From Erysipelotrichaceae bacterium (GTDB lineage: Bacteria > Bacillota_I > Bacilli_A > Erysipelotrichales > Erysipelotrichaceae), in contig OY760660.1 in NCBI GenBank assembly GCA_963663995.1, positions 1,890,001 through 1,922,000 of the forward strand: 32,000 nt of DNA. The letters run 5' to 3'. Positions 1-30,456 of this stretch are shown in pieces. The first letter of the stretch is position 1, and each line of letters begins with the position of its first letter. Below the pieces are notes generated by a model. It saw only the letters and a list, made by a program, of their open reading frames with translations. It made no database searches and was not told where the DNA came from. A program made the translations under genes and the position numbers.

Positions 1-72
1 AAAAATAGTGAGCTCGAAGTCTTAGATGGATACTTTGAAAAGATCGATCAAGCGCTTGCGAGCATACAGTAA
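1..72 (+). CDS. V-type ATPase subunit A, C-terminal fragment (partial, runs off window start)
   Basis: Frame 1 is open from the window edge to TAA at 70-72 (...ELEVLDGYFEKIDQALASIQ*). It ends just before an AAGGAGG SD and the subunit B start. The assignment rests on A-B-D operon order; the fragment is too short to confirm by sequence alone. Confidence 0.5.
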   Translation, partial: KNSELEVLDGYFEKIDQALASIQ

Positions 73-84
73 GGAGGGACAATT

Positions 85-1524
85 ATGAGCGTTCAATATA
101 AAGGCTTAAAAGAAATTAGAGGTCCCCTTATTGTTTTAGATAATATTCAAAATGTAGGTTTTGAAGAGATGGTCGAGATTGAACTTGAAAATGGTTCAAC
201 ACGTACCGGTCGTGTCATTATGATTGAGGGTGAAAAGATTGTTGTTCAAGTTTTTGAAGGAACATCAGGTCTTTCTCAAATCAACACAAAAACTAAACTT
301 TTAGGACACCCAATGCAAATTGCTTTATCAAAAGAAATTTTAGGTCGTGTCTTTAATGGTGCTGGAACAGCTATCGATGGTTTAGGTGAAGTTTTCGCTA
401 ACGAATATGCTGATATTAATGGTAGTGCATTAAATCCTGTTATGCGTAAATACCCACGTAACTATATCAACACAGGTGTTTCTGGCATTGATGGTTTAAA
501 TACATTGATTCGTGGTCAAAAACTACCTATCTTCTCAGGGTCAGGTTTACCACATAATCAATTAGCTGTACAAATTGTTAGACAAGCAAACATTGCTGCT
601 GAAGCAGGACAAGAATTTGCGATTGTTTTCGGCGCTATGGGTGTTAAAAATGACGTCGCTGATTATTTCAGAAGATCATTTGAAGAAACCGGTGTTATGG
701 AAAAAGTTGTTATGTTTATGAACTTATCCAATGACCCAATTATTGAGCGTATTTTAACGCCTCGTTGTGCTTTGTCAGCTGCTGAATACTTAGCCTATCA
801 AGTAGGTATGCATGTTTTGGTTATCTTAACGGATATTACATCTTACTGTGAAGCATTACGTGAATTCTCTTCATCAAAAGAAGAAATTCCTGGACGTAAA
901 GGTTATCCAGGTTATATGTATTCTGACTTAGCATCATTATATGAAAGAGCAGGGATTGTTGAAGGACGTAAAGGTTCTGTAACACAAATTCCTATCTTAA
1001 CCATTCCTAATGACGATATCACTCATCCAGTACCTGATTTAACGGGTTATATTACAGAAGGTCAAATTGTTTTAGATCGTAATTTACATCAAAATGGTTT
1101 GTATCCACCAATTGGTATTCTTCCATCCCTTTCTCGTTTGATGAAAGATGGTATTGGTGAAGGTTATACACGTAAAGATCACTCATCTTTAGCAACACAA
1201 CTCTTTGCATGTTATGCGAAAGTTCAAGATGCTAGATCACTAGCATCCGTTATTGGTGAAGAAGAACTATCAAATGTTGATAGAAAATATATGGCTTATG
1301 GTCGTCTATTTGAAAAACTCTATATCGCTCAAGGTTTTGATACAAATCGTGCGATTGAAGATACGCTTAACTTAGGTTGGCATCTATTATCTTTATTACC
1401 AAAGAAAGAACTCGATCGTATTCCCCAGGAATTAGTAGAAGAGTATTATGATAATCATAATGCGATTGCTTACTTCATGGCCGCTATGGGTGGCGATGTT
1501 GACGAGATACTAAAAGAGGCTTAA
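85..1524 (+). CDS. ntpB: V-type ATP synthase subunit B
   Basis: 479 aa with full-length resemblance to V/A-type ATPase B subunits ([14 protein letters not shown] in place of a P-loop; [22 protein letters not shown]). SD AAGGAGG lies upstream. Confidence 0.95.
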
Positions 1525-2611: not shown

Positions 2612-4321
2612 ATGCTAAAAGGTATTGCTGCAAGTAGTGGCGTAGTCGTCGCGAAAGCCTATAAAATGGTTCAACCCGTTTTTGAAATTACAAAGAAATC
2701 TGCCAATGTAGAGGAAGAATTAGCAAAGTTTGAAGCGGCTATTCTAAAGACTCGTGCTGACATCGAAAGCATTAAGGCAAAGGCTGTTGGAAAATTGTCT
2801 GATGAAGAATTAGCGATTTTTGATGCCCACATTATGGTTACAATGGATCCAGAATTCACAGGCCAAATGGAAGAAATGATTAAGAATGATGGCGTTAACG
2901 CTGATTATGCTTGTCATGAAGTATCAAGTATGTTTATCAATATGTTTGATAGTATGGAAGATCCATACTTCAAAGAACGTGCAGCTGACATTAAAGATGT
3001 TAGTTACCGTTTAACTTGCCATATCTTAGGCTTAGAAATGGCTGACTTATCTTTAATTAATGAAAAAGTTATTATCGTTGCCCACGATTTAACTCCATCA
3101 GATACAGCTCAATTAAATAAAGAATTTACTTTAGGTTTCGCTACTGCGATTGGTGGTCGTACATCTCACTCAGCGATTATGGCTAGATCATTAGAAATTC
3201 CTGCAATCGTTGGGATTAATGGCTTATTAGAAGAAATTAATCATGGTGATCTAATCGCTCTTGATGCGATTGATGGTGAACTTTACTTAAATCCTACTGA
3301 AGAAGAAATCAAAGACTTTGAGAAAAAAGCTGAACGTTATGCAAAACTCAAAGAAAGCTTAAAAGTATTAAAAGATGCTGAATCAATCACAACAGATGGA
3401 CATCACGTTGAACTTGTTGCTAATATTGGTACACCTAATGATGTTGATGGCGTATTAAATAACGGTGGTGAAGGTGTTGGTTTATACCGTACTGAATTCC
3501 TTTATATGGATGCTAAAGACTTCCCAACAGAAGATGATCAATATACTGCTTATAAAACAGTTTTAGAGAGAATGGGTAAAAAACCTGTTGTTGTTAGAAC
3601 CTTAGATATCGGTGGAGATAAAGAGTTAAGTTACTTAGACTTACCTCACGAAATGAATCCATTCTTAGGCTATCGTGCGATTCGTTTATGTTTAGATCGT
3701 CCTGAACTATTCAGAACTCAAATTCGTGCACTTCTTCGTGCGAGTGTCCATGGTAATCTATGTATTATGTTCCCAATGATCGCTACATTAGACGAATTCA
3801 GAGCGGCTAAGAAATTCGTTAAAGAAAACGAAGCTGAATTAAAAACTGAAGGCGTTGAAGTCGCTAAATACCAATTAGGTATTATGGTTGAAATTCCTGC
3901 TGCTGCTGTTCTTGCTGATCAATTTGCTAAAGAAGTTGACTTCTTCTCAATTGGAACCAATGACTTGATTCAATATTCTATGGCAGCTGATCGTATGAGT
4001 GAAAAAGTATCTTACCTCTATCAACCCTATAATCCATCATTATTACGTTTAATCAAAATGACCATCGACGGTGCTCATAAAGAAGGTAAATGGTGTGGTA
4101 TGTGTGGTGAAATGGCTGGTGAACCTTATGCTGTTCCTCTACTATTAGGTTTAGGTTTAGATGAATTCTCAATGTCTGCTACCTCAATCTTACAAGCACG
4201 TAAAATCGTTCGTTCATTAAGTTATAAAGAAATGCAAGATTTATCTGCAAAAGCGCTTAACTTAACAACAATGACTGATGTACTTGACCTTGTTAAAGCA
4301 AGCGTAAAGTTCGACGACTAA
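2612..4321 (+). CDS. ptsI: phosphoenolpyruvate-protein phosphotransferase (PTS Enzyme I)
   Basis: 569 aa. Active-site His region [22 protein letters not shown]-terminal PEP-utilising domain ([14 protein letters not shown]). SD AAGGAGA upstream. Confidence 0.97.
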
Positions 4322-18135: not shown

Positions 18136-18668
18136 GAACTTGTCTCCTTTAACTTTATAAATAGAAATGGTACTTTTTCTTGATAATCAAGATAACCAGG
18201 TATCGATTGCGGAAAAATTACTGTATCTTGTATCGCCACATGAATTAAATCAAAGATTGACCAAATAATTGCGGTTAATAAAATTAGGAAACTGCCAGAT
18301 GCTAAGGTAAAACCAAGCCCCATGAGAATAAATCCCCAAACGCCAGGATGACGACATAGTGAATATATACCATGATCAACTAATTTTACTTCATCTAACT
18401 TCGTGTATGTATCTGCATAAGGTAGGGCAAAAAACAAAGCATAAATTTGTTCAATTGCACCAATGACAACTAATGAATAGAAAAGATAATTGGAAGAAAA
18501 TGTACCATATAGATCTTTTTGAATGAAAATCATTGTCAATGAAACGATAAGTAGAATGATTGAAAAAGGGAATAAAGCATTCAAAATATGATGCCATTTA
18601 TAAATTTTATTCAAGTCAAAAAGAGTTAGTAAAATGAATGATGTACAACCAATTACGATCCAGTTCAT
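18117..18668 (-). CDS. ICMT/PEMT-like membrane methyltransferase family protein
   Basis: Polytopic. GIYSLCRHPGVWGFILMGLG resembles the RHPxY-type motif of isoprenylcysteine carboxyl / phospholipid methyltransferase-like proteins. ATG 18668 is preferred over TTG 18692 (GGGGAAGGG SD-like upstream). Confidence 0.6.
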   Translation of the reverse strand: MNWIVIGCTSFILLTLFDLNKIYKWHHILNALFPFSIILLIVSLTMIFIQKDLYGTFSSNYLFYSLVVIGAIEQIYALFFALPYADTYTKLDEVKLVDHGIYSLCRHPGVWGFILMGLGFTLASGSFLILLTAIIWSIFDLIHVAIQDTVIFPQSIPGYLDYQEKVPFLFIKLKETSSCQNPS

Positions 18669-18693: not shown

Positions 18694-18795
18694 CAAAAAA
18701 CCGACCCAAAAACGTGGCCGGTTACGCTACTAGCTCATACAGGGGATAAGCGTCCAAATTTACCCTGTAATCAAGGCTTCCGATATATACTTGTA
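18694..18795 (-). promoter_or_regulatory. candidate c-di-GMP class II riboswitch with intrinsic-terminator expression platform
   Basis: Minus-strand RNA: CGGAAGCCUUGAUUACAGGGUAAAUUUGGACGCUUAUCCCCUGUAUGAGCUAGUAGCGUAACCGGCCACGUUUUUGGGUCGGUUUUUU. It shares the AAAUU(U)GG, GAGyUAGUAG and AACCGrCC blocks of the class II aptamer as I recall it. Two helices show compensatory changes (ACAGGG/CCCUGU and ACGC/GCGU). ACCGGCC also forms the 5' arm of a terminator (pairs with GGGUCGGU, then U6). Confidence 0.65.
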
Positions 18796-18800
18796 GAGCC

Positions 18801-18829
18801 ATTATAGAATCAAAAAATGCCCACTACAA
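18801..18829 (-). promoter_or_regulatory. sigma-A-type promoter of the riboswitch-led operon
   Basis: Minus strand reads TTGTAG, a 17-nt spacer, then TATAAT, placed immediately upstream of the aptamer. Confidence 0.5.
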
Positions 18830-19980: not shown

Positions 19981-20373
19981 ATGGGAAGACCAAAAGGAAG
20001 CACAGGAAAAAAATTACATAAATGGACAGTTGAAGAAAAATTAGAGATCGTTAATAAACATTTAATAGATCACATGAGTTATGAGCAAATTAAGATTAAC
20101 TATCAAGTTGGTTTAGCACAAATACATAACTGGGTAAAACAATATCACGAGAACGGAGAAGAAGGACTTCTCCCAAAAGAAAATAAACGTAATATAATGG
20201 CTCATCTATATCGAAAGAAAAACCTAAACAAACTTGAGAAATTAGAACTTGAGAACTTCAAATTAAAACTAGAAGTTGAACGATTAAAAAAAGGTTACAC
20301 AGTGAAAGGAGTTGGTTCAAACAAGGAATACGTTCCTACATCCAAGACGAATATCAAATCATCAAAGAATTAA
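19981..20373 (+). CDS. IS3-family transposase OrfA (HTH + leucine-zipper region)
   Basis: 130 aa. N-terminal HTH (WTVEEKLEIV...GLAQIHNWVKQY) and a heptad-Leu region (LEKLELENFKLKLEVERLKK). The slippery run lies near the 3' part. Confidence 0.85.
   Translation: MGRPKGSTGKKLHKWTVEEKLEIVNKHLIDHMSYEQIKINYQVGLAQIHNWVKQYHENGEEGLLPKENKRNIMAHLYRKKNLNKLEKLELENFKLKLEVERLKKGYTVKGVGSNKEYVPTSKTNIKSSKN
20286..20293 (+). promoter_or_regulatory. programmed -1 ribosomal frameshift site (A AAA AAA G)
   Basis: The run of seven A then G is read in the orfA frame as TTA AAA AAA GGT. Frame -1 is open from here to 21227 and encodes the DDE domain. Confidence 0.7.
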
Positions 20374-21227
20374 GTAATGAGTATTCAGTTGGATTTTTAT
20401 GTGGAGTATTAGATGTCAGTCGTAGTGGTTATTATAAATGGTTAAAACGTTTAGACACACTCAATCGGCATGAACAGAATAGAGAAGATCTTATTAAACT
20501 TATCGAAGAGATACATACAGAACATCCATCATACGGTTATCACGATATAACGGCAGTCATCACTACGCGTACAGGTTGGAAATTATCTGCATTAACGGTA
20601 CATAAAGCCTGTAAAGCGATTGGCGTTAAATCAGAAACTAAGCATTACAAGTGGAAGAAACCAGGAGAAGAACACGTCACTTATAAGAACGTCGTTTCAG
20701 GAAACTGGGAGGTATCTCGACCCTTAGAAATCGTGACGAGCGATATGACTGTACTCACCCATAGAGGAAAACAATATGAGTGGACATTCATCGTTGATGT
20801 GTTCAATAACTCCATCATCGCATCATCACTTAGTTCAAGACGAAATGATAATTCTACCTATTACCATTGTCTTGATCAACTCATTCACATCATCAAAAAA
20901 GAAGAATATTCCGAACCCATCATTTTCCACAGTGACCAAGGTGCAGTTTATTCTTCAAAAGGCTTCCAAGAAGCTCACAAAAATTATAACATTATTCGAT
21001 CTATGTCGCGCGTAGGCACACCAACTGATAACGCAGTTATAGAATCACTTAATGGTTGGATCAAAGCTGAAATAAAATGTGATTATAATCTTAAAGAATG
21101 GGATTCACTTGAAACTTTCATTGATCAATACATAGAGTTCTTTAATAATGAAAGACCAGCTTACAAACTCCAATATAAAACCCCTAACCAATTCTTAATT
21201 GATCAAGGGTTCACTGTTTTTTATTAA
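20292..21227 (+). CDS. IS3-family transposase OrfB part (DDE integrase-like catalytic domain; expressed as OrfAB fusion)
   Basis: My manual translation of frame 3 is open from 20283 onward: ...RLHSERSWFKQGIRSYIQDEYQIIKELSNEYSVGFLCGVLDVSRSGYYKWLKR... It then continues into the tracked ORF. DDE triad candidates are TSDMT, HSDQG and ESLNGW. Confidence 0.85.
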   Translation, partial: RLHSERSWFKQGIRSYIQDEYQIIKELSNEYSVGFLCGVLDVSRSGYYKWLKRLDTLNRHEQNREDLIKLIEEIHTEHPSYGYHDITAVITTRTGWKLSALTVHKACKAIGVKSETKHYKWKKPGEEHVTYKNVVSGNWEVSRPLEIVTSDMTVLTHRGKQYEWTFIVDVFNNSIIASSLSSRRNDNSTYYHCLDQLIHIIKKEEYSEPIIFHSDQGAVYSSKGFQEAHKNYNIIRSMSRVGTPTDNAVIESLNGWIKAEIKCDYNLKEWDSLETFIDQYIEFFNNERPAYKLQYKTPNQFLIDQGFTVFY

Positions 21228-29885: not shown

Positions 29886-29992
29886 TTGAAAATAAAATGA
29901 CCGGTTTTCTGCTAAGTGCAGTTGACCGGTCATAGATTACTCTTTAGACGCCTAACTTTGTGCCCCAAGTTTTCACTTGGTTTACCTTTTGA
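29886..29992 (-). promoter_or_regulatory. candidate c-di-GMP class I (GEMM-I) riboswitch, promoter-distal (gene-proximal) copy, with its own terminator
   Basis: Minus-strand RNA: AAAAGGUAAACCAAGUGAAAACUUGGGGCACAAAGUUAGGCGUCUAAAGAGUAAUCUAUGACCGGUCAACUGCACUUAGCAGAAAACCGGUCAUUUUAUUUU. This parallels the Vc2-type core GGCAAACC-stem-GAAA-stem-GGGACGCAAAGCC. The terminator is ATGACCGG...CCGGTCAT plus a U run, followed by the SD and ATG 29869. Confidence 0.62.
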
Positions 29993-30065
29993 CAAAGACG
30001 ATTTACTTTTTAATACCTTTTCTCAAATAATAATCTCCTTTAGAGGAATTAAGACATTCTTTTTT

Positions 30066-30172
30066 AATAAAAAATGACCAGTCCTCTGCTATGTGCAGTT
30101 GACCGGTCATAGATTACTCTTTAGACGCCTAACTTTGTGCCCCAAGCTTTCACTTGGTTTACCATTTTACAT
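30066..30172 (-). promoter_or_regulatory. candidate c-di-GMP class I (GEMM-I) riboswitch, promoter-proximal copy, with its own terminator
   Basis: Segment 30071-30163 differs from 29894-29986 at 5 of 93 positions. It has the same aptamer core (GGUAAACCAAGUGAAAGCUUGGGGCACAAAGUU...). The terminator is AUGACCGGUC...GACUGGUCAU followed by UUUUUU. Confidence 0.62.
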
Positions 30173-30184
30173 ATTGGTGTTTAC

Positions 30185-30382: not shown

Positions 30383-30456
30383 TGGCAGGGGTAGTAGGAG
30401 TTGAACCCACATTATTGGTTTTGGAGACCAGTGCTCTACCATTGAACTATACCCCT
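30383..30456 (-). tRNA. trnW: tRNA-Trp (anticodon CCA), CCA end encoded
   Basis: The reverse complement AGGGGTATAGTTCAATGGTAGAGCACTGGTCTCCAAAACCAATAATGTGGGTTCAACTCCTACTACCCCTGCCA folds as a cloverleaf. It has a 7-bp acceptor stem, anticodon loop CUCCAAA and a GGTTCAACTCC T-arm. Confidence 0.9.

Follow-up and report, generated by a model that had tools for sequence, protein, structure and literature searches.

A class II c-di-GMP riboswitch, probably a transcriptional ON switch, in the leader of a PEMT-like/GH3/HD-GYP operon of an Erysipelotrichaceae bacterium

We have analyzed a stretch of 32,000 nucleotides (nt) from the genome of an Erysipelotrichaceae bacterium (contig OY760660.1 of assembly GCA_963663995.1), hereafter the window, to whose first letter all coordinates refer. 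The segment under study (18694-18829) is read on the minus strand and is the leader of a putative operon of four genes. These code for a PEMT/ICMT-like membrane protein of the methyltransferase type, an adenylate-forming ligase of the GH3 family, a membrane protein with GGDEF and HD-GYP domains and a CYTH-like protein. From 18829 to 18694 the segment runs exactly from a -35 hexamer through the G that follows the U run of an intrinsic terminator, and it encloses an RNA that the original prediction considered a candidate riboswitch of the second class for cyclic di-GMP (c-di-GMP-II). The features are collected in Table 1. The opposite reading of the segment, on the plus strand, was discarded, as it gave only insignificant Rfam matches (E > 1) and no open reading frame (ORF).

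Table 1. Features of the operon leader and of the genes that follow it, in window coordinates
Feature	Position	Strand	Remarks
-35-like hexamer TTGTAG	18829-18824	-	from reading the sequence; 3 of 6 matches to TTGACA
-10 hexamer TATAAT	18806-18801	-	perfect consensus; 17-nt spacer from TTGTAG
c-di-GMP-II aptamer	18789-18707	-	RF01786 match, model positions 1-84 of 84
P1, 5' strand GG	18781-18780	-	pairs with C18717 and C18716
Bulged A	A18779	-	between the 5' strands of P1 and P2
P2, 5' strand AGC	18778-18776	-	pairs with GCU 18734-18732
Kink-turn-type internal loop CUUGAU	18775-18770	-	opposite UGA 18737-18735
P3 hairpin	18769-18738	-	UACAGGG (18769-18763), 18-nt loop, CCCUGUA (18744-18738)
Pseudoknot 5' partner UGGACGC	18756-18750	-	in the P3 loop; pairs with GCGU 18727-18724 and CCG 18721-18719
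Aptamer 3' segment GCGUAACCGGCC	18727-18716	-	pseudoknot 3' partner, pocket AA and P1 3' strand
Intrinsic terminator	18723-18695	-	AACCGGCC (18723-18716), 9-nt loop (18715-18707), GGUCGGUU (18706-18699), U6
GACCC (18687-18683) and purine-rich Shine-Dalgarno region AGGGGAAGGG (18682-18673)	18687-18673	-	possible sequestering or anti-sequestering element, weakly inferred
Gene 1, PEMT/ICMT-like membrane methyltransferase-family protein, 183 amino acids (aa)	18668-18117	-	ATG at 18668, after the purine-rich Shine-Dalgarno region
Gene 2, GH3-family adenylate-forming ligase, 543 aa	18135-16504	-	overlaps gene 1 by 19 nt
Gene 3, multi-pass membrane N-terminus, degenerate GGDEF and intact HD-GYP, 849 aa	16507-13958	-	overlaps gene 2 by 4 nt
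Gene 4, CYTH/CyaB-like	13956-13348	-	start uncertain; weak TIGR00318 match (E = 3.2e-7), below cut-off

The RNA was compared with the Rfam families in a scan of 501 nt run in E-value mode. RF01786, the c-di-GMP-II family, aligned over its full length with 49.5 bits and E = 5.5e-10, a significant match though under the gathering score of the family (53.5 bits), and all the other families had E > 1 at the site. The conserved blocks GGA, UGA, UUGG, GAGCUAGU and AACCG of RF01786 are kept. Three strings for which the original prediction pointed to the crystallized Clostridium acetobutylicum RNA, AAAUUUGG, GAGCUAGUAG and AACCGGCC, are all present and align with conserved blocks of the Rfam consensus. 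The promoter originally described, TTGTAG-17-TATAAT, is also there, with some 12 nt between TATAAT and the region aligned with RF01786, and transcription would start near A18794. In related leaders the TTG of the -35 hexamer is kept, and TATAAT is perfect and at a constant distance from the aptamer wherever the upstream DNA suffices.

The window RNA shares with RF01786 and with the structure of the C. acetobutylicum representative (3Q3Z) the succession of P2, kink-turn and P3, and the pseudoknot in which the loop of P3 pairs with the 3' tail. It differs from RF01786 by a P1 reduced to two secure pairs and by two swapped pairs in the pseudoknot. The internal loop aligns with the conserved gaUGAa / gGA of the family, with its UGA / GA nucleotides conserved. 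We have called it a kink-turn because this is known for the class, 3Q3Z being counted among the k-turn riboswitches (PMC4316175). The 3' segment GCGUAACCGGCC aligns with the conserved GUGCAACCGgCc of RF01786 and shares bases with the 5' arm of the terminator. Seven pairs make up the pseudoknot (UGG-ACGC with GCGU-AA-CCG). Compared with the Rfam consensus, UGGGCAC has changed to UGGACGC and GUGC to GCGU, so that one pair went from G-C to A-U and another from A-U to G-C. This is the compensation proposed from the sequence (ACGC/GCGU for the consensus GCAC/GUGC). The second helix for which compensatory changes had been claimed is P3, UACAGGG/CCCUGUA, and it covaries among relatives.

As predicted, the conserved 3' segment of the aptamer doubles as the 5' arm of a terminator. 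The hairpin has a stem of 8 bp, the first two residues of the U6 run (18700-18695) closing the stem; it appears in the minimum free energy (MFE) fold of the leader and amounts to -11.1 kcal/mol by itself. Specifically, the arm AACCGGCC consists of the AA of the ligand pocket, the CCG of the pseudoknot and the CC of P1. Both folds need it, and therefore the ligand-bound fold and the terminator are mutually exclusive. The terminator together with P3 reaches -19.6 kcal/mol, versus -7.6 for the secondary structure of the aptamer calculated without pseudoknot or ligand, and termination should thus be the default state. The z-score of the MFE of the whole leader was only -1.3, a value that is uninformative for a pseudoknotted switch.

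Homologues of the GH3 protein are numerous. The same leader is found at the same position in the close relatives, those with GH3 proteins 79-92% identical, wherever there is enough upstream DNA. Six independent close relatives carry the element, which was also detected in L141, a genome-sized contig of about 1.96 Mb, and in L140, a contig from a metagenome scan. In two more contigs (L085 and L142) the end falls inside the aptamer. The leaders of L081, L082/L083, L084, L086 and L087 gave between 47.1 and 54.6 bits with RF01786 (E = 2.5e-9 to 3.4e-7 in a search of 62.7 kb), and the highest value, that of L082/L083, is above the gathering score. Besides the promoter, the relatives keep the terminator and the Shine-Dalgarno region, while the spacers diverge. 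P3 appears among them as UACAGGG/CCCUGUA, UAUAGGG/CCCUAUA, UCAGGG/CCCUGA and AGAUUGGGG/CCCCAUAUCU. RNAalifold, which is blind to the family, recovered P3 from eight operon-linked leaders with compensatory changes in four of the seven pairs. The comparison of homologous leaders of GH3 operons, one of the checks suggested with the original prediction, has provided covariation in P3.

A scan of a metagenome collection for the 3' motif GAGCTNGTAGCGTAACCGNCC gave 52 loci. A covariance model built from them (R1) found 54 aptamers, 53 of them distinct, and produced 82.1 bits at the window aptamer, its sole match in the window. In the alignment of the 53 sequences 87% of the cells pair, versus 78% in column shuffles (none of 500 reached the observed value) and 24-44% when the partners are slid, with P2 paired in 99% of the cells and the pseudoknot in 99.5%; it has to be counted against our case that the search pattern fixed the 3' half of this alignment and that it was fitted to R1 itself, both of which inflate these percentages. 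All seven P3 pairs vary on both sides. The loop side of the pseudoknot (UGGACGC), on which the search pattern set no constraint, is found in 51-53 of the 53 sequences. P1 has two G-C pairs in 50 of 51 sequences, a third pair in 61% and a fourth in 39%; at the third position the window has C-A. Members of this subclass, of which metagenomes contain many, score 40.3-67.2 bits on RF01786, and of 23 scored 7 pass the gathering score and 16 stay below. The 49.5 bits of the window are typical of the subclass, whose best members are unambiguous at the level of Rfam.

The expression platform recurs as well. Out of 49 distinct platforms in the subclass, 43 show a continuous stem, 5 bp or longer, that originates within the conserved UAACCGNCC and has a U-rich tail behind it. 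In a small number of aptamers (L104/L113 and L134/L136) the terminator is missing and the RNA passes directly to a Shine-Dalgarno sequence and a start codon, e.g. AACCGGCCUCAUAGUAUAAACUAGGAGGAGAUGUAUAUG, which suggests translational control instead. Other members of the subclass precede genes of secreted surface proteins with SLH, Big_2, SpaA, InlB-repeat or SpvB domains. Several contigs have two aptamers each: L111 (13-109 and 1104-1202), L117 (1626-1723 and 1824-1921), L107 (336-433 and 554-651), L093 and L116. Some of these pairs are about 100-120 nt apart, in tandem and with their own terminators, in agreement with the tandem c-di-GMP-II arrangements already reported (PMC9481103). One contig (L119) has in addition a cobalamin riboswitch (1-162, minus strand, 115 bits, clipped by the contig end) on the same strand as its class II aptamer (2127-2210) and about 1.96 kb downstream of it. 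The two are probably separate units; an ORF of 556 aa fills most of the gap.

Several other observations weigh against reading the leader as a class II riboswitch. The Rfam scan of the whole window at the gathering threshold found nothing at 18707-18789 (its only hits were one tRNA and two c-di-GMP-I aptamers), the aptamer being 4 bits short of the required score. P1 has just two secure pairs, and its outer positions are mostly mismatched. Two pairs of the pseudoknot are off-consensus and one of them, at position 68, is listed as ligand-proximal, so there is a small chance that affinity or selectivity is altered in the subclass. Within the operon-linked clade the pseudoknot is invariant, and its support comes only from the comparison with the family consensus. 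We attribute the low score to the mismatches of outer P1 and to the four substitutions in the pseudoknot, for which the covariance model can give no credit because it cannot represent a pseudoknot and counts the swaps as plain mismatches. The consensus scans for promoters and terminators listed neither TTGTAG-17-TATAAT nor the hairpin at 18723-18695. In the first case only three of the six -35 positions match, in the second the loop has 9 nt and the scan a limit of 8, and we have taken neither result as evidence of absence.

Weighing both sides, we consider that the operon leader is a class II c-di-GMP riboswitch acting as a transcriptional ON switch, with a probability of roughly 85% that takes in both the ligand and the direction of the switch. 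Judged by its sequence, the element is a real RNA of this class, ordinary in class and mechanism, and its ligand would be c-di-GMP. The HD-GYP protein encoded in the operon, the surface-protein contexts of the subclass and the two c-di-GMP-I riboswitches of the window all point to c-di-GMP. Transcription would start a few bases past TTGTAG-17-TATAAT, and the first 85 nt or so of the RNA would fold into a short P1, a P2 of 3 bp, the kink-turn loop, P3 and the pseudoknot of UGGACGC with GCGU-AA-CCG. In the absence of ligand the tail AACCGGCC would pair with GGUCGGUU to form the terminator, and RNA polymerase would stop at the U run ahead of gene 1. When c-di-GMP is bound the tail would be locked in pseudoknot, pocket and P1, the terminator could not form and the polymerase would read into the operon. 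The same logic has been described for a class II riboswitch of Clostridioides difficile, Cdi-2-4 in front of pilA1, which terminates without c-di-GMP and allows read-through with it (PMC6366702, PMC6200980); our comparison with Cdi-2-4 is by description. All four class II riboswitches of C. difficile are ON switches (PMC6200980, PMC11477304, PMC6366702). The ON logic of the original prediction is thus backed by the overlap of aptamer and terminator, by its recurrence in the platforms of the subclass and by these precedents.

The alternative that fares best would add to the transcriptional switch rather than replace it, and we still regard it as unlikely. It holds that there is a second, translational layer: in the ligand-bound read-through messenger GGGUC (18707-18703), released from the 3' arm of the terminator, would pair with GACCC (18687-18683) and leave the Shine-Dalgarno sequence open, and without ligand the hairpin of the terminator would stay in place and the ACCC would pair with GGGU of the Shine-Dalgarno sequence, so that initiation is blocked. 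The MFE folds do contain the ACCC/GGGU hairpin over the Shine-Dalgarno sequence in the case of the window, L084 and L082. The energies go in the same direction, with -14.9 kcal/mol for aptamer plus GGGUC/GACCC versus -7.6 for the aptamer alone, and -24.1 for terminator plus sequestering hairpin versus -19.6 for terminator plus P3. Eight of ten operon-linked leaders, with different flanks, have an ACC(C)/GACC tract immediately before the Shine-Dalgarno sequence, and in L087, where the arm reads GAUCG, a CGAUU occurs downstream to match it. All this comes, however, from about ten closely related sequences, and L140 has a different platform. Besides, the candidate helices are G/C-rich and have 4-6 bp, and chance complementarity to GGGUCGG is likely.

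The identity of the ligand is the next point at which the transcriptional ON switch could be challenged. Reviews have warned that hits to a riboswitch class can hide variants (PMC5473149), and the Rfam clan of RF01786 (CL00127) also includes the variant families c-di-GMP-II-GAG and c-di-GMP-II-GCG. The fold could thus be the same and the ligand of the ACGC/GCGU subclass another, e.g. 3'3'-cGAMP (cyclic GMP-AMP), pGpG or c-di-AMP, with the terminator logic unchanged. In 3Q3Z c-di-GMP is bound by A13, A14, U37, G39, U60, A61, C68, A69, A70, C71, C72, G73 and A74 (PMC7288161), and one of the guanines of the ligand joins an A-U pair in a minor-groove triple (PMC7583470). Our transfer of this numbering from the crystal construct to the window is an assumption. 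With this presumed mapping the window keeps 11 of the 13 pocket nucleotides, namely A13, A14-U60 (in P2), U37, G39, A61, A69, A70, C71, C72 and G73. C68 would be U in the window, presumably compensated by G40 to A. The position that we take to be A74 is G in the window; the Rfam consensus is lower-case there, and the subclass is split into 27 A and 26 G.

What speaks for a different ligand is that the pair beside the AA bulge is A-U instead of G-C, position 68 being ligand-proximal in 3Q3Z by the presumed mapping, that A13 and A61 vary within the subclass, and that most members are under the gathering score of RF01786. Against it, both pseudoknot changes are Watson-Crick compensations, and A14-U60, U37, G39, A69, A70, C71, C72 and G73 show little or no variation. 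RF01786 was the best-scoring family of the clan in every scan (window, relatives and members of the subclass), the lower-scoring overlapping matches of the clan having been dropped in the competition, and neither variant family reached its own gathering score in the window. Several members with the same pseudoknot exceed the gathering score of RF01786 by up to 14 bits. The gene contexts of the subclass (adhesins, surface proteins, an HD-GYP protein) are also classic for c-di-GMP. A change of ligand appears improbable to us.

Slightly less credible still is a decaying relic, in which the hairpin and U run would attenuate or pause transcription constitutively, leaving the operon deaf to c-di-GMP. 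The sub-gathering score and weak P1 would fit, and 5 of 16 predicted c-di-GMP riboswitches of C. difficile are non-functional (PMC6366702). A relic would not be expected to be kept, with compensatory changes in P3, in all the relatives whose GH3 proteins are 79-92% identical, in a leader that diverges around it, nor to have all the conserved core nucleotides intact, and a constitutive terminator right after a strong -10 hexamer would silence a conserved operon. As for an OFF switch, in which the ligand favours termination or occlusion of the ribosome-binding site, nothing specific supports it apart from class I c-di-GMP riboswitches working either way (PMC6366702), and it is next to excluded since the 5' arm of the terminator (CCG, AA and the CC of P1) is used in the ligand-bound fold, so that binding removes the terminator, and since every class II switch that has been tested in C. 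difficile is ON (PMC6200980).

We have examined the genes that the ON switch would control. The original prediction spoke of an ICMT-like, a GH3 and an HD-GYP gene, and the last two were confirmed, while the first appears to be PEMT/ICMT-like. It has to be completed in two respects: gene 3 has, besides HD-GYP, a degenerate GGDEF domain (AGDIF) and a membrane N-terminus, and downstream of it there is a CYTH-like gene. The overlaps between genes 1, 2 and 3 (19 and 4 nt) speak in favour of a single transcript, and all four genes may well be co-transcribed. The product of gene 1 matches Pfam PEMT with 32.7 bits (cut-off 25) at residues 80-144 and, more weakly, the ICMT structure 4A2N (E = 0.021) at residues 92-172. 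That of gene 2 is above the cut-offs for GH3_M (53.7 bits) and for the N-terminal domain of GH3 (29.5 bits), and a profile of its family found plant GH3 structures with E of about 1e-7. In 24 homologues of gene 2 the columns TTW.GG, FGGTE and YR..D are invariant; they would correspond to the three GH3 motifs. L081, and apparently L141 too, has the CYTH-like gene 4, and L082 lacks it.

In gene 3 Pfam detected GGDEF (113.6 bits), HD_5 (125 bits) and HD. The GGDEF site reads AGDIF (548-552), and the HD-GYP motifs are HDIGK at 702 and HHERYDGRGYP at 755-765. The homologues carry a HisKA_7TM domain. From these motifs the product is predicted to be a phosphodiesterase and not a cyclase. With complete HD-GYP motifs and a broken GGDEF motif in gene 3, a high level of c-di-GMP should induce the predicted phosphodiesterase together with two more enzymes, those of genes 1 and 2, and a negative feedback through the HD-GYP protein is likely, if the predicted activity is right. 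According to reviews, c-di-GMP riboswitches rarely feed back on their own ligand (PMC6366702).

A bacterial relative of gene 2 for which a function is known is OlsH, the GH3-like lyso-ornithine-lipid synthetase of planctomycetes, which shows that GH3-like enzymes of bacteria are able to couple fatty acids with amino acids (PMC12493201). Both belong to the same GH3 / adenylate-forming superfamily. OlsH is partnered by the acyltransferase OlsI, whereas the partners of gene 2 are the PEMT-like and HD-GYP proteins. Orthology of gene 2 with OlsH was rejected, as the score was 20 bits against a cut-off of 620 and only the N-terminus matched.

We surveyed 80 loci of Bacillota reference genomes (L001-L080) with GH3 proteins 44-66% identical to that of gene 2. 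The trio of PEMT-like, GH3 and 7TM-GGDEF-HD-GYP genes appears in the same order in almost all of them (e.g. L002 3572-8315 and L068 76-5666), in Erysipelotrichales, Syntrophomonadaceae, Desulfotomaculaceae, Lachnospiraceae, Oscillospiraceae and others. The nearest loci come from metagenome-assembled genomes of Erysipelotrichaceae/Erysipelotrichales, with GH3 identities of at most 66%. Among 73 homologues of gene 3 the HD-GYP motifs are intact in 71, and only 27 have GGEEF at the GGDEF site, the others having AGDIF, SGKEF, GGKEF, GGDVF, GEDTF and similar. All the riboswitch-bearing contigs examined have AGDIF or GGDIF (the latter in L086). The GGDEF domain seems to have drifted repeatedly, across lineages, from a cyclase towards a probable sensor.

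The riboswitch is not a general trait of GH3 operons, which the scans of the 80 loci ruled out. A regular expression found nothing in the 80, Rfam scans at the gathering threshold found no c-di-GMP family in the 29 to which they were applied, Rfam in E-value mode no c-di-GMP riboswitch in the six closest, and R1 nothing at E < 0.1 in the 80. In the closest riboswitch-free loci TATAAT is about 25-35 nt before the start codon and leaves no room for an aptamer. Aptamer and terminator are therefore an addition of about 110 nt in one narrow clade, apparently related to Erysipelotrichales.

In at least 12 of the distant loci an ORF of 290-320 aa ends 3-45 nt before the PEMT-like gene, and the four that were scanned belong to DegV. 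This fatty-acid-binding family and the precedent of OlsH hint at a fatty-acyl substrate. Speculatively, and with the odds against it, the cassette could be a c-di-GMP module in which the GH3 and methyltransferase-like proteins synthesize or alter a compound, either a lipid or a fatty-acyl amino acid, that is sensed by the membrane HD-GYP protein, which would then lower c-di-GMP. The clade described here would have added control by c-di-GMP at the RNA level, giving a self-limiting loop. If true, the cassette would couple envelope or lipid remodelling to c-di-GMP.

The author of the original prediction was not aware of a c-di-GMP riboswitch in front of GH3 or ICMT-like genes. In agreement with this, full-text literature searches returned no paper that links c-di-GMP-II, or c-di-GMP itself, with GH3, nor any description of the PEMT-like/GH3/7TM-GGDEF-HD-GYP cassette. 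The class II switches of C. difficile govern pili, adhesins or CmrRST (PMC11477304), whereas that of the window would govern cytoplasmic and membrane enzymes and a predicted c-di-GMP phosphodiesterase. What is new is the gene context, the likely feedback through HD-GYP and a subclass that mostly falls under the Rfam threshold; the RNA class and the mechanism were already known, and the understanding of class II riboswitches is unchanged by this element. Because the pseudoknot variant is mostly under the gathering score (16 of 23), the size of the class II regulon of uncultured Bacillota has probably been underestimated. For the cassette, the riboswitch offers a first hint, open to test, that high c-di-GMP is the condition in which it works.

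The surroundings of the operon have some features of their own. Two c-di-GMP-I aptamers (RF01051) lie in tandem on the minus strand at 29914-29996 and 30091-30173, with 61.6 and 62.0 bits and each with its own hairpin and U run. They are upstream of a gene for an adhesin of 1331 aa, Big_9/cadherin-like (29869-25874), and of a gene of transglutaminase type, T2SSF, small pilin-like ORFs and T2SSE. Both classes of c-di-GMP riboswitches are thus found within 12 kb of each other. On the plus strand, pieces of a transposase of insertion-sequence type, an HTH_28 ORF and an rve integrase-core ORF (19981-20373 and 20733-21227), lie between the T2SSE gene and a gene for an FAA-hydrolase that diverges from the riboswitch operon, and no such ORFs were called there in L141. 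An identical tRNA gene (64.3 bits) is found at 30386-30456 (minus strand) in the window and at 4148-4218 (plus strand) in L082. It is 11.6 kb away from the riboswitch in the window versus about 1.1 kb upstream of it in L082, indicating that the neighbourhood has been rearranged between relatives. In the place of the pilus-like cluster of the window, L082 has GDPD and MatE genes.

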